Shown piece after piece: positions 28,350 to 33,118 of a DNA stretch of 64,000 nt. The notes below the pieces were generated by a model. The model did not search any database, was not told the DNA's origin, and saw only the letters and a program-made list of their open reading frames with translations. The first letter of the stretch is position 1, and every line of letters begins with the position of its first letter. Made by a program: the position numbers and the translations under genes. Origin of the DNA: an uncultured Chloroflexia bacterium (GTDB lineage: Bacteria > Chloroflexota > Anaerolineae > CG2-30-64-16); contig CAVZDU010000010.1 of NCBI GenBank assembly GCA_963774265.1, forward strand, positions 224,001 to 288,000, in the 5' to 3' direction.

Positions 28350-29575
28350 TCAATGCCACACCAACCCTGCGACCGACACCCAGGACGTGTTCCCTTCATC
28401 CGCCGGGCACTGATCGTAAGCGACTGTCTCACCGCGTGTCACCCCCAGGAGCCGCAGTGCAAGGTATATGGGTGGCAACCCGCACACATTGTTACGATCA
28501 TCCACGGATTGTAGCGCGGCGAAAAACCCGTCCGCGTCTCCATCGGCCATCCTGGCCAAAAGCGCCTCATCCGTCCTGGCAAGCTTGGCGCGGTTGGGTG
28601 GATCGACCGGCGGGCCGCCGAAGGCGGGGCCGATGTGCGCCAGGTCAGCGGCCGCGACGACGAGGAGGTTGCGCCCCTGAGTTGCCTGGCGCAGGGCCGT
28701 AATCGCCCTTTCGATCTGCCTGTCGGCCGCCGGATCGGCGTGTCCTGCCACGAAGTGCGCGAACGAGCCACAGAGGATCGGTGCAACCTCGATTGCACGG
28801 CCTTTGCGCGCATGATGCAGCCAGACAGAGGCGAGCTCAATCGAGTGCTCCTTGCGGTGGTGCAATTCCTCCGCAAACGCCTCATCATCTCCCAGCGCAT
28901 CGGCCACCGCGTCAATCACGCTGGAGGCTGTCGGCAGCAGGCCGTAGGGCGTGGCGTAGCTCTGCCGCGTCGGTGTTATTTTCCCCGGGCCACCGCTGTG
29001 GTCCGTGCCCAAGATGATCGCCAGGTCCGCTGCCTGCGCTGCCTCTGTCGATGCACGCCAGACCGCCTGATAGACCGGTCCGCCGCCGCGCATAATCGAT
29101 GTGCGGGCTGACTACCCCGCGTACCGGCGTAGGGTCTGAAAGAAAGTACCCGTTGCTTACAGCGCGGTCATTGAAGGCCTCCAGGAAGCCCATGAGTGCC
29201 TCTGCATCTGCGGGATAGCCGCCGCCCGCAATCGTCGGCGGGCGATTTGGCGCGGAGCGGTAAGCTCTCAGGGCGCTACGCATTGCCGTCGCTGTGCGCT
29301 CGTTGTCGAGCAGGCACGCCACCTCCAGCGCCTCCACCACCTGGTTGAGCATCTGTCGGGAGATGCGAATGCCCCAACGCACACTCGAGCGCGGTGTGGA
29401 TGCCGACCAGATCGCGGGTCCCGTCACAGAGTCCTAGCAGGGGCGCCAGCGGCTGGGGTATGGCTAGCATCTGGTCCGTCAGCCCCAAGGGGTCCCGCAA
29501 AAGGAGCATGGCCTGACCGTCCTGCCGAAAAGGCTGGATGTCCAACGCACGTAGCTTCGGATACGCTTCTGTCAT
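28350..29575 (-). CDS. MEMO1 / AmmeMemoRadiSam protein B family with N-terminal extension (frameshifted near 29370 and 29090)
   Basis: PHIDY, ILGTDH, TPYG, KEHSIE, ADLAHIGPAFG and NVCG are spread over three ORFs. Confidence 0.85.
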
Positions 29576-29578
29576 GGA

Positions 29579-31937
29579 TCAATCCCCCATTGGGGTTTTG
29601 CTCAGCGAGCCGGGGGAAGGCTTAGGATTACGTTTCTTCTTTGTGCTGACCGGCCGCTCACGCAGATCGTGTTGCATGCAGAAAGAGCGAATGACATCGA
29701 GGAATTGCTCTCCGTAATGTGCTAACTTGTGTTCTCCAACGCCGGTGACCGTCAGCAAGGCCTCAGGCGAGTGCGGACGGCGAGAGACCATCTCCGCCAA
29801 CGTCCGGTCGGAGAAGATCACAAACGGTGGGACGCTTGCTTCCTTAGCCAACGCAGAACGCACTTTGCGTAACTCTTCAAAAAGGAGGCGCTCAGCGCCC
29901 GAGTCATCCACATGCGGGGAATCAGCCTGTACAGGCAACGTCGGGAGGAGGATGCGTTCATCCACCCCCGGCCCTGCGGTCCGTGACCTTCGTGCCTGTC
30001 CACCGATGCGCTTGGAGCCGGTGATCCCTCCGCTCGATAGGCAGTTGTCGCACATGGTGCACTGTTTCGTCGATATCGCTTCACTGAAGTAGTTCAGGAG
30101 GGGGACGCGGCGGCAACCGGCTGTCCTTGCATAGCGCAGCATCGCTTGGAGGCGCTCCTCTTTCCTGACGCGTTCATCCTTGGGGCCTTTGTTGATGAAG
30201 TGACGGACCTTCACGACATCCTGCATGCCCCATAGGAGAAGGCAGTCCAGCGCGAAGCCCGTCGCGGCCCGCGCGGCCGATCTCCTGGTAGTAGCTTTCC
30301 AGGTTCTTCGGCAGTGCTGCGTGCAAAATGAAGCGAACATTGGATTTGTCGATGCCCATGCCGAAGGCGATGGTTGCGACAATAATGGGTGTCTCATCGC
30401 GTGAGAAACGCCGTTGGTGCTCGCGGCGGGTGGCGTCGTCCATTCCGGCGTGATAGGGCACCGCCTGCAATCCCTCATGAGTCAATTGTTCGGTCAGGCT
30501 GTCGACGTCGTGACGTGTCTGGCAGTAGATGATGCCGGACTGGTCTTTGTGAAGGTCAAGAAACGTGAGGATCTGACTAATTCCCTGGACGCGAGGGCGC
30601 GTCTCGAGGAACAGGTTCGGCCGATTGAAGCTGGCAATAAAACGATTGGAATCCCCAAAGCCGAGGATCTTCGTGATGTCCTCTTGCACACGCTTCGTCG
30701 CGGTGGCAGTCAGCGCCAGGCACACTGCATCCGGATAGCGCTGTCGGACCGGCAGTAGATTGCGATACTCTGGGCGGAAATCATGTCCCCACGATGAGAT
30801 GCAGTGGGCCTCGTCAATGGTGATGCAGGCCACGTGCGCTTGATCGAGCATCACGAGGGTCTCGGGACGCAGAAGAGTCTCGGGCGCCATGTAGACTAGT
30901 TTGATTGCACCTCGTCGGATGGTGTCCTTTGTATTGACATAAGCATGGTAACTCATTGTGCAATTCAGGAAGGCAGCCGGAACCCCCAGCTCATGTAGCG
31001 AATCCACCTGATCTTGCATCAATGAGATGAGGGGTGATATCACGACTGTGACGCCGTCGAAGAGAAGCGCGGGCAATTGATAACACATCGACTTGCCGCC
31101 GCCGGTAGGCATGATTGCAAGCGTGTCGCGCCGCGACAGCACGTTCGCAACCACCTCGCCCTGGAGCGGTAGGAAGTCATCGTAGCCGAACACGGACTTG
31201 AGCAGGCCCCGAGCGCTACCGAACAAGGGACTTGGCCCTGATGCCCCGGAAGCCGGGACATCATCGCCGGGGATTTGCGGGTGTGGGGTCTCACGAGGAT
31301 GGGGGGGCGCCTCGTCACCCTCGAACCATCCGCTCAGCTGCAGATAGCAGCGCAGCTCCATGTCGTCTTTGTCCTCTGGACGCCACCAGTGGGCCAGGGA
31401 AACACGCACCAACGTCCCTGCAGGGATTACCTCAATCGGCTCCTGAAAGCCCACGAAGGCAAGCGTGCGTCCGCCGTCCGCAGTGAAATAGCGATAGCGG
31501 ATGCGCTTGCCCTCTTCATCTCGAACCAGGTCACGGTCCGGGCGCCAGAACAGGGTGCTGCGTGAGGGGACCCCGGACTGCTCGGCGACATACATGGCGC
31601 CTCCAGGGCTGACCTGGATTAACCCATCGTACAGCAAATCCGGTCCTCCGATGGCGGGCGGCATGACTTTCTCGATGAACCTTGTCACCCGATCTGTGGA
31701 GGCCTCCCGGAGACGGTGTTTCTGCTGCACGACGACGTTCTCGATGTGTGGCGGCTTCAGGTCCGCAGGTGGATCGCCTTCGATCTCCCACACATCGCCG
31801 ATCTGATAATCGAGGTTGAAGTGCTCGTTGCCGTCCATATCCTGGGCGATAAGACGAACGCTCTGCCCATCATCGGAAATGGCGCCAATACACGCGCCGC
31901 CCCCCATGTGCGTCTTTGCGACGACGACGACTTTCAT
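29579..31937 (-). CDS. recQ: RecQ-family helicase with N-terminal dual-OB-like domain, Zn domain and HRDC (frameshifted near 30250)
   Basis: MPTGGGKSMCYQLP, SPLISLMQDQV, IDEAHCISSWGHDFRPEY, ATIAFGMGIDK, YYQEIGRAGRDG, CRR...CTMCDNC and HRDC LFEELRKVR...PPFVIFSDRTL, with about 210 extra N-terminal residues. Confidence 0.92.
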
Positions 31938-31990
31938 GTACGCCTCTGGGAATGGAATTCATCTGTCGGAACGGAAGGATCAGCTGCCGT

Positions 31991-32476
31991 TCAAGGTATG
32001 AGATGAGTGACCTTAGTGCCAGTATCTTTCTGGAGCCGTTCGGCCAAAATGCCGCGATGGCACGCCCCCGGCAAAAGCTCGACACACAACAGAGCCACAA
32101 TATGCGCTCCTGGCCCCAAGTCAGCAACAAACTGGCAGCTGTCAAACCTGTCCAGGATCTCCTGCGTGTAACCTGCGTGAAACTGGGCGCTCAACTCCGT
32201 CCTCTTGCGCCGAGCCACCTGGGCATCATGATCGGCGGCGGCCTGCCACTTGCGGAGCGCATCCGAGGGCGAGAGATCGATGCGGTGGATGTATCTAACG
32301 CCCATCTGCGCAAGACGCGCCTGCAGACGCTTGCTGTTGGCGAAGGCATAGTCTGAGCCGCGTACCGCGCGCCGCCGGCGGATGTCAACGAGTGTGTCAA
32401 CTTTGTTGTGTTCCAGCGCGGCAAAAAACCGTTCAGCATCCCAGCCGTACACACCCACTGTGACGAACTCAGTCAT
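31991..32476 (-). CDS. DUF488-family protein
   Basis: FVTVGVYG, LVDIRR, YIH...LSP, LLCVE...ACHR; ATG at 32476 overlaps the upstream stop (ATGACTGA). Confidence 0.8.
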   Translation of the reverse strand: MTEFVTVGVYGWDAERFFAALEHNKVDTLVDIRRRRAVRGSDYAFANSKRLQARLAQMGVRYIHRIDLSPSDALRKWQAAADHDAQVARRKRTELSAQFHAGYTQEILDRFDSCQFVADLGPGAHIVALLCVELLPGACHRGILAERLQKDTGTKVTHLIP

Positions 32477-33062
32477 CCTCGACGGCCTCCGCGCCGTGCT
32501 GCTTCTTGTAGCGTTTTCGCGATCGCAACTCGGGATCACCCAACAAACTGAGTTGTCCCCCGGAACGACGGCTCAGCGCCTCCTCTTGGGTGATCATCGA
32601 GTCGTTCTCGTCAATGTGCGCGACGGGGGTGCCCAGATCGGCCAGGCTCTGGCCGATAAGCGCCGTGCGGTGGCACTGCTCAGGTTTGCCCTCACTGCAC
32701 ATTACGACCACCCGCAAGCCTTGGTCGCGTGCGTGACGGAGCCGGGCAATGCCTTCCACGAAGAGTGGGCGCTCTTTCACTCGATCGTAAATCACCTTGC
32801 CGTTCTCGTAGCACGTCGGATCATTGGGCTGGCCTCCCAGGGTCTCGCCCAAGTAGACATACCGCAGTCCGGCCTGCGTCGCCGCTTCCTTGAGAGCGTT
32901 TTTTGAGAATTCCGGTTTGAATTTTGAGTAGGGCGCAGAGCGAACATCAACCAGGTAACAAATGCGGTGGGCCTTGAGCACAGCAAAGAAGGCGTCGAGC
33001 GAGCGGGCGCCATAGCCGATCGTGAAGATGGGAATCTCGCGATCCCCGGAGAGTGGAGGCAT
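32469..33062 (-). CDS. DUF488-family protein
   Basis: IFTIGYG.RS, LVDVRSAPYS, YVYLGETLGG, MCSEGKPEQCHR, HI. Confidence 0.88.
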   Translation of the reverse strand: MPPLSGDREIPIFTIGYGARSLDAFFAVLKAHRICYLVDVRSAPYSKFKPEFSKNALKEAATQAGLRYVYLGETLGGQPNDPTCYENGKVIYDRVKERPLFVEGIARLRHARDQGLRVVVMCSEGKPEQCHRTALIGQSLADLGTPVAHIDENDSMITQEEALSRRSGGQLSLLGDPELRSRKRYKKQHGAEAVEDD

Positions 33063-33089
33063 GTTGACCAGTCAGTTCGCGTTTAGCCC

Positions 33090-33118
33090 ATCCTACACCG
33101 CGCGGCCGCGGCGCGCAA
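33090..33118 (-). promoter_or_regulatory. putative promoter of the DUF488-recQ operon
   Basis: Minus strand TTGCGC-17 nt-TAGGAT, about 28 nt before ATG 33062. Confidence 0.5.

Follow-up and report, generated by a model that had tools for sequence, protein, structure and literature searches.

A DUF488a-DUF488b-DuOB::RecQ gene cassette found in several bacterial phyla and its relation to the candidate system PDC-M45

Introduction

The 2023 study of the RapZ-C/DUF488/DUF4326 clade by Burroughs and Aravind is said to unite the Cys-phosphatases and the diphthine/tetrapyrrole-type methylase N-domain groups. Its abstract reportedly credits the clade with activity on NAD-derived sugars, RNA termini and DNA ends, and is said to predict DNA-end processing, not the trapping of lesions. 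Here we analyse a cassette that carries two DUF488 genes, DUF488a and DUF488b, followed by a gene for a RecQ helicase with an N-terminal dual oligonucleotide/oligosaccharide-binding (OB) domain, DuOB. It lies in a stretch of 64,000 nucleotides from an uncultured Chloroflexia bacterium (contig CAVZDU010000010.1, positions 224,001 to 288,000), which we call the window.

The closest catalogued system is PDC-M45 of the PADLOC collection, in which DuOB and two DUF488 proteins occur together. In the sections of the preprint that introduce them, PDC systems are predicted from their embedding in restriction-modification (RM), BREX and DISARM loci and were added to PADLOC for later functional study, and the seven experimentally confirmed systems are separate, Hma-embedded (HEC) candidates (Payne et al. 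2024, bioRxiv 10.1101/2024.01.29.577857). PDC-M45 is absent by name from the main text of that preprint and from the other literature searched. In a ParB-CTPase preprint and a Methanoperedens plasmid paper DUF488 receives no more than a brief mention, without a function in the passages where it appears, and the relevant passage of an SspA preprint describes literature on Escherichia coli YeaO as lacking.

The cassette is therefore of a kind that is already catalogued, its fusion to RecQ is visible in public annotation, and it is experimentally untouched. RecQ helicases are central to genome maintenance, and RecQ partner enzymes of this kind are not known to have been studied. We compared the cassette across genomes, modelled DUF488a and DuOB and weighed what it may do.

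Results and Discussion

A three-gene cassette conserved across species

The cassette and the gene that follows it are all on one strand, within positions 28350-33118 of the window. The parts of the cassette proper are as follows.

33062..32469, minus strand: DUF488a (A-type), 197 aa; Pfam DUF488 (PF04343), 77.2 bits, 2.1e-21, above the cut-off of 22.2
32473..31991, minus strand: DUF488b (B-type), 160 aa from ATG; Pfam DUF488, 57.9 bits, 2e-15
31937..31326, minus strand: DuOB domain (dual OB), N-terminus of the RecQ protein; Pfam DuOB (PF22557), 76.6 bits, 3.5e-21, residues 1-204, above the cut-off of 27
31169..30258, minus strand: RecQ helicase core; Pfam DEAD 6e-24, Helicase_C 3.2e-20
30246..29579, minus strand: RecQ C-terminal part; RecQ_Zn_bind (30223-30038) 1.9e-17, HRDC (29884-29690) 6.3e-22

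The DUF488b ATG at 32473 overlaps the DUF488a stop, within ATGACTGA, and 53 nt separate DUF488b from the ATG of the DuOB-RecQ gene at 31937. These gene positions and spacings, and the 3-nt gap between recQ and the next gene, agree with an initial annotation of the locus, a note made from the sequence by itself that had read four genes as an operon acting on DNA lesions or in defence.

To see how far the arrangement extends we used a species-level scan with one genome per species, in which 374 genomes encode this type of DuOB; the counts that follow come from the best 80 loci. That set and a second one of 41 relatives of the window's genome were drawn from one collection and overlap. In 75 of the 80 loci a single frame encodes both DuOB and the RecQ core; the two lie in overlapping frames in two loci and are cut short in three. 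An A-type and then a B-type DUF488 gene stand just upstream of DuOB-RecQ in 73, and the other seven loci lie less than 600 nt from a contig end. By record title the 80 loci belong to Chloroflexota (56, in several orders), Verrucomicrobiota (10), Poribacteria (9), Planctomycetota (2), Acidobacteriota (2) and Latescibacterota (1). There is no fourth conserved gene, every further family being present in at most 11 of the 80 loci.

The relatives give the same picture. DuOB occurs in 12 of the 41 genomes, always within a long frame, and DUF488a, DUF488b and DuOB-RecQ stand together in 10 of 11 loci, the eleventh being cut by a contig edge; overlaps between the cassette genes are frequent in relatives. 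In unfused forms (L091, L093) RecQ is the next gene, a Rosetta-stone link. The cassette DUF488a-DUF488b-DuOB::RecQ is thus conserved in its order and translational coupling in many species of several phyla, and the tightly linked unit of DUF488 pair and dual-OB RecQ that the initial annotation had proposed is real. That annotation's statement that no RecQ-coupled version had been described was too strong, given that at least 930 clusters of public proteins (537-1712 aa) match the DuOB part and, where they are named, are called 'DNA helicase RecQ' or a close variant, and that DuOB with two DUF488 proteins is PDC-M45 of PADLOC.

In a sample of 401 genomes of the phylum the DuOB matches are mostly proteins of 200-300 aa. 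Among 40 loci from this sample the DUF488 pair stands beside DuOB in 33, RecQ is fused in two and is a separate adjacent gene in two. Several complete genomes of one genus in the sample (G277, G317, G253, G227, G357 and G420; loci L058, L064-L067 and L070) carry two tandem stand-alone DuOB genes beside the DUF488 pair.

The DuOB-RecQ helicase

The helicase part scores 424.6 bits against TIGR00614 (recQ_fam, cut-off 219.8) on the first of its two frames alone, and the motifs GGGKS, DEAH and GRAGRDG are intact. Against the RecQ equivalog TIGR01389 (cut-off 640.2) the separate scores of the two frames are 469.7 and 125.3 bits; fused relatives with an intact gene reach 674.5-711, and the same-genus genome G006, which has no RQC domain, reaches 543.7. 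RQC (PF09382) was found neither in the window nor in G006, so that the canonical set of core, Zn-binding, RQC and HRDC domains is incomplete; RQC is missing from the whole genus, and more distant fused relatives have both RQC and HTH_40. The DuOB-RecQ protein is the sole RecQ-family match above cut-off in this genome, and among the relatives seven of the eight matches above the TIGR01389 cut-off are DuOB-fused genes. Some relatives hold an additional, shorter RecQ-like paralog and many do not. By these profile matches the DuOB-fused helicase appears to be an otherwise ordinary RecQ and the main RecQ of the cell.

The predicted structure of DuOB (pLDDT 94.7) is all-beta. Foldseek returned 12 matches at E <= 0.001, and all 12 are HIN-200 tandem-OB DNA-binding domains; the first OB, searched alone, resembles the OB folds of RPA, SSB, PriB and MCM with Z scores of 6.3-7.8. 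A sequence search of the PDB with DuOB gave no match, and literature searches for DuOB together with a helicase turned up only unrelated papers. DuOB therefore models as a HIN-like tandem OB, which bears out, along with the Pfam score, the dual-OB assignment of the initial annotation.

The DUF488 pair

The two DUF488 proteins are only 24% identical to each other, the divergence that the initial annotation had noted, and both contain T-x-G, D-[VI]-R and C-x-E...C-H-R, motifs that are invariant or nearly so in the relatives compared. In the A-type (n=63) C122, E124, C130, H131 and R132 are invariant; in the B-type (n=70) the invariant residues are C130, V131, E132, C138 and R140, with H139 present in at least 90%. 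The candidate catalytic residues and a tail peptide discussed below map to the window as follows.

32699..32667, minus strand: DUF488a candidate active site C122-S-E...C130-H-R132, conserved in relatives
32086..32054, minus strand: DUF488b candidate active site C130-V-E...C138-H-R140, conserved in relatives
32555..32541, minus strand: DUF488a tail peptide QLSLL, beta-clamp-binding-like by motif resemblance

In the model of DUF488a (pLDDT 90.1) C122 ends the strand E118-122, and H131 begins a helix, 131-142, with R132 at its start. Among the top 50 neighbours in a structural scan of the PDB, 34 are protein tyrosine phosphatase (PTP) or dual-specificity phosphatase folds, aligned over residues 9-183 with Z scores up to 9.1 (KAP 9.1, laforin 8.6, Sulfolobus PTP 8.0). 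The rest comprise 14 tetrapyrrole- or diphthine-type methylase N-domains (CbiF, Z 9.5) and two LacI-type regulators. The best PDB match by sequence had an E value of 0.026 and was spurious. The PTP loop is C-x5-R, and that of DUF488a is longer, C-x9-R. The model is consistent with a place for DUF488a in the Cys-phosphatase (rhodanese-phosphatase) superfamily, and does not prove it.

DUF488b was also compared with DUF488-N3a (PF22751, 'active DUF488-N3 subclade'). The window copy scores 23.3 bits and so falls short of the cut-off of 27, and B-type relatives pass with 30.5-38.5 bits, so that the B-type subfamily is DUF488-N3a-like.

The A-type proteins end in a tail of the form GQLSLF...FTSRKRY followed by an acidic end. 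The beta-clamp-binding consensus is of the QL[SD]LF type, and the tails carry QxxL[FLMWY] in 60 of 63 sequences and the strict QL[SD]LF-type in 34 of 63. The tail of DUF488a thus resembles a beta-clamp-binding peptide and is a candidate for one. The motif is found in three of 22 canonical PDC-M45B-type tails, against seven of 11 in the subfamily with the order A-B-DuOB. A complex prediction for DUF488a, DUF488b and DuOB together gave a score of 0.01, which is uninformative either way.

Matches to PDC-M45

A PADLOC search, which the initial annotation had suggested as a check, found components B and C of PDC-M45 in the window: DUF488a matches PDC-M45B at 1.2e-48, and DUF488b matches PDC-M45C weakly, at 2.1e-11. 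Component A went unmatched. None of the four PDC-M45A models matches the DuOB of the window or of the related locus L021 (E up to 10 and 0.01), and the PDC-M45A model PDLC04656 has no match in the whole genome. In the same phylum the locus L057 carries a stand-alone cassette in the order DuOB-A-B. This cassette matches all three components, PDC-M45A at 1e-91, PDC-M45B at 4e-73 and PDC-M45C at 1e-68, and its first protein is a Pfam DuOB at 1.4e-72. On these comparisons the window cassette is a divergent, RecQ-fused subtype of the DuOB and two-DUF488 cassette PDC-M45, and belongs to a divergent subfamily marked by the order A-B-DuOB and by frequent fusion to, or adjacency with, RecQ.

DUF488b scores slightly better on PDC-M19A (4.7e-14, positions 151-289 of 294), apparently a longer protein in which DUF488 is the C-terminal domain.

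Possible function

We consider it about an even chance (roughly 0.5) that the cassette processes DNA ends or gaps as a clamp-tethered module in the service of the main RecQ of the cell. RecQ would unwind DNA in the 3'-5' direction at gaps, ends or stalled forks, and its N-terminal DuOB would hold the DNA so exposed. The two DUF488 enzymes, probably paired, would be recruited through DuOB and, by the tail of DUF488a, through the sliding clamp, and would use their cysteines to transfer a phosphoryl or sugar-phosphate group at a terminus or a damaged residue of the DNA, a reaction that would let repair or restart proceed. The conservation of the cassette and of its motifs, the domain identities and the housekeeping context are observations; what we infer is the chemistry, how the proteins contact one another and the link to the clamp.

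The context was examined in the flanks of 33 RecQ-fused cassettes (127 open reading frames, ORFs). Each PADLOC family matches at most two of these ORFs, the Pfam families are a housekeeping mix, and the 25 that occur most often include neither integrases nor transposases. The flanks are housekeeping regions, not defence islands, and do not favour a defence role.

Several points weigh against the end- or gap-processing reading. The spread of DuOB is patchy, at 10 of the 24 genomes of the family and, counting any DuOB, 49 of the 401 in the phylum sample, and loci from six phyla, going by their titles, share 54-67% identity in the domain; such a patchy, cross-phylum spread fits an accessory, horizontally moving system such as defence. 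The canonical cassette was catalogued through its embedding in RM, BREX or DISARM loci, according to the sections of the preprint on PDC systems (Payne et al. 2024, 10.1101/2024.01.29.577857). RQC is missing in this genus, so that the RecQ is not fully canonical. The rhodanese/phosphatase placement made in the initial annotation is upheld insofar as the DUF488a model resembles Cys-phosphatase folds, and is weakened in that Z scores of 8-9.5 fall in a range that unrelated folds can reach (those for the phosphatases are at most 9.1) and that Foldseek found nothing for DUF488a at E <= 0.001 (best >= 6e-3). The window tail reads QLSLL, not QLSLF. Literature searches found no biochemical or genetic data on DuOB or DUF488 proteins.

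The same evidence raises an alternative that we regard as a serious rival, though a less likely one, namely that the cassette is a RecQ-armed subtype of PDC-M45 acting in anti-phage or anti-plasmid defence, with the helicase loading on invader DNA and the DUF488 proteins processing or modifying its ends, leading to degradation or a block of replication. The matches of both DUF488 proteins to PDC-M45 components speak for it, as do the stand-alone cassette of the same phylum that matches all three components, the fact that PDC systems, in the sections describing them, were defined through their position inside BREX, DISARM or type I RM loci, and the patchy spread across phyla; the best fold matches of DuOB, moreover, are HIN-200 proteins, DNA sensors of mammalian innate immunity. 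Against this, the window DuOB matches no PDC-M45A model, the flanks contain few PADLOC matches and lack integrases and transposases among their commonest families, the housekeeping synteny is kept within the genus, and DuOB-RecQ appears to be the cell's only equivalog-grade RecQ. PDC-M45 itself is a candidate system which the main text of the preprint does not name.

A more ambitious form of the end- or gap-processing reading, which we hold only tentatively and think rather unlikely, is that the cassette belongs to an undescribed pathway of DNA repair or restart. In such a pathway a RecQ whose HIN-like tandem OB replaces RQC or is added to it would work with a clamp-tethered pair of Cys-phosphatase fold in a new covalent DNA chemistry, and the stand-alone PDC-M45 cassettes would be helicase-less versions borrowed for phage conflict.

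It is improbable, in our view, that the DUF488 pair has as its target a nucleotide, an RNA end or a derivative of NAD or ADP-ribose, and serves to regulate or mark RecQ instead of processing the substrate of the helicase. Among the structural neighbours of DUF488a are RNA 5'-phosphatases and triphosphatases of capping enzymes (1yn9, 2c46, 8p4c), and the activities on NAD-derived sugars and RNA termini with which the clade is reportedly credited would also fit, but the constant partners of the pair are a DNA helicase, OB folds of the type that binds single-stranded or double-stranded DNA and a clamp-like tail, and no conserved nucleotide-generating or nucleotide-sensing gene lies nearby.

In many environmental bacteria (by title Chloroflexota, Verrucomicrobiota, Poribacteria and others) what appears to be the main RecQ comes with fixed accessories, a tandem-OB domain and the two DUF488 proteins. 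The link to RecQ gives the DUF488 and DuOB families a testable context, the DNA ends or gaps that come from a 3'-5' helicase, perhaps at the clamp, and the RecQ-fused cassette bears on whether the candidate PDC-M45 really is a defence system.

Frame breaks and the quality of the assembly

The four genes that the initial annotation listed are present and co-oriented, but as written recQ lies in two frames and the fourth, a MEMO-family gene, in three.

30250..30247, minus strand: recQ frame break, one extra base, GCTGGAC against GCGGAC or GCTGAC in relatives
29575..28350, minus strand: MEMO-family gene in three frames; Pfam Memo (PF01875) 8e-18, 65 bits, on the last piece, above the cut-off of 27

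The first recQ frame (31937..30174) holds DuOB, DEAD and Helicase_C and the second (30478..29579) RecQ_Zn_bind and HRDC, with the break at about 30249; those in MEMO are at about 29387 and 29087. Both genes are almost certainly broken by assembly errors, since rpoB, rpoC, uvrA and secA of the same genome, the four long universal genes examined, are each split over at least two frames as well. The genes rpoB, rpoC and secA are essential wherever tested, so their frame breaks cannot mean pseudogenes. Examples of split housekeeping genes are found at C7:822-8551, C1:715721-717918 and C10:405405-408420.

Comparison with relatives points the same way. Against the intact genes of G006 the window has one extra base each at 30249, 29387, 29087 and 23492. 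Short-read contigs of a close relative, from a soil-metagenome run (X1), do not have the extra base at either of the sites that they cover, 30249 and 29086; they reach two of the three break sites in the cassette and MEMO, the one at about 29387 being outside their coverage. In eight of eight aligned relatives GRDGL-x-x-DCLLL reads across the recQ break in one frame, and relatives assembled in several hundred contigs have intact fusion proteins of 978-1065 aa. The window's own assembly has 10 contigs and 84% completeness. In G001, of the same genus (40 contigs, 75% completeness), recQ and MEMO are also broken, at other positions.

That recQ and MEMO are true pseudogenes, in a cassette decaying in this species, is very unlikely. 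Three frame breaks in 1.2 kb, compared with one (23492) across the approximately 24 kb syntenic with G006, would fit such decay, as would the loss of the HTH_40 tail of RecQ. The four split universal genes tell against it, as do a completeness of only 84% despite 10 contigs, the fact that all four breaks relative to G006 are +1 bases, and the short-read contigs; moreover the helicase motifs are intact, and neither in-frame stops nor larger lesions occur.

A further gene in the window, at 24180..22983 (minus strand), has its frame broken by the extra base at about 23492, relative to both G006 and G001. One 1247-aa frame of G001 corresponds in alignment to two window ORFs, 46163..47500 and 47484..49904, which may reflect another break or a fusion. 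Single-base indel errors are frequent in this assembly, and therefore pseudogenes should be called with caution in this genome.

The MEMO neighbour

The initial annotation counted MEMO as a member of the unit, a claim that does not survive comparison. MEMO lies within the flank of the cassette in three of the 80 loci and near it in two of the relatives' 11, both of the same genus. In those two, G006 and G001, a HAD hydrolase gene stands between recQ and MEMO (L020:6049-6723, minus strand, and L022:11520-12167, plus strand), and the G001 interval also has GlmS-like GATase/SIS pieces. The intact MEMO ortholog of G006 scores 97.7 bits (PF01875). RecQ of G006 ends in HTH_40 by a Pfam match, and the G001 tail aligns to it. 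A match to the HTH_40 tail was found nowhere in the window's genome, and the HAD gene is missing from its recQ-MEMO junction; a deletion therefore brought MEMO up to recQ. The recQ-MEMO junction differs among the three species of this one genus.

In the window the recQ stop (29581-29579) is followed after 3 nt by the MEMO ATG at 29575. A soil-metagenome contig bridges this junction (29501-29652) with one G fewer, at 29589, in a GGGGG run, and therefore the recQ stop would overlap the MEMO start there. The least likely of the readings makes MEMO a working member of an operon of four genes and has the DUF488 cysteines trap abasic or modified sites. The close junctions in the window and in the soil-metagenome relative are outweighed by the scarcity of MEMO near other cassettes, by the genes that part it from recQ in G006 and G001, and by the deletion which made the junction close and also removed the HTH_40 tail of RecQ. 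MEMO is a chance neighbour outside the conserved cassette. It should stay out of the annotation of the system, and the gene breaks in the window should be treated as assembly noise.

Promoters and neighbouring genes

The cassette genes probably form one transcription unit, to judge from their layout, with a shared orientation, an 8-nt overlap and a 53-nt gap. A search of sequencing runs gave no RNA run and one DNA run that shared 6% of the words. The promoter that the initial annotation proposed for it is weak.

33118..33090, minus strand: putative cassette promoter TTGCGC-17-TAGGAT, 7/12 consensus matches

It is absent from the output of a consensus scan, which lists two sites in total where shuffled sequences give 1.7. 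The separate promoter proposed for lepB has an extended -10, TGcTATAAT, at 28308-28300 (minus strand); its -35 matches only 3/6, and the candidate is likewise absent from the scan output. The lepB -35 candidate, TTGCTT, lies 17 nt upstream of the -10 (28328-28300, minus strand) and has its TTGC start in common with the putative cassette promoter, which may be a local promoter style. The scan gave no minus-strand terminator-like sites between the genes and one inside recQ (29900-29886).

The Cheo-type LexA box is GAAC-N4-GTTC. Upstream of DUF488a it occurs in none of 67 loci, nor in the window, and therefore there is no sign of SOS control by that motif.

The neighbours in the window are lepB, deoC, ppa (inorganic pyrophosphatase) and a gene for a large amidase, in an arrangement syntenic with G006. 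The amidase gene lies directly upstream of the cassette (35527..33170, minus strand) and encodes a 785-aa protein in which two Amidase_2 (N-acetylmuramoyl-L-alanine amidase) stretches flank a long coiled coil; the coiled coil gives weak, spurious PADLOC matches to JetC/LmuB. This gene is syntenic in both G006 and G001.

Comparison with known systems

Four described groups can be set beside the cassette. The first is the HIN-200 family (AIM2, IFI16, MNDA, p202/p204), with which DuOB shares a tandem pair of DNA-binding OB folds that aligns over about 220 columns. The TM-scores of 0.32-0.42, a root mean square deviation of about 8 A and identities of 9-14% set the two apart, and the likeness of the modelled DuOB to HIN-200 appears to be one of architecture; we do not claim common descent.

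The second is bacterial RecQ as defined by TIGR01389 and TIGR00614. The window protein has its helicase core, Zn-binding and HRDC domains and its intact motifs, and differs from it in the N-terminal DuOB and the two dedicated DUF488 genes upstream. The genus also has no RQC domain, and this species lacks the HTH_40 tail too.

The third is the RapZ-C/DUF488/DUF4326 clade. The structural neighbours of the DUF488a model are the two groups that the 2023 study is said to unite, Cys-phosphatases and diphthine/tetrapyrrole-type methylase N-domains, and the window or its relatives give matches to Pfam DuOB and DUF488-N3a, whereas the window's own DUF488b remains below the N3a cut-off (23.3 against 27).

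The last and closest is PDC-M45, which has the same three kinds of protein and whose canonical DuOB is in the same Pfam family as that of the window. The order in the window is A-B-DuOB, unlike the canonical DuOB-A-B, and its DuOB is fused to RecQ and matches no PDC-M45A model. The QLSLF...FTSRKRY tail is found in the A-type proteins of the subfamily and is mostly absent from the canonical M45B-type, and the flanks of the RecQ-fused cassettes, unlike the surroundings from which PDC systems were predicted, are not defence loci.

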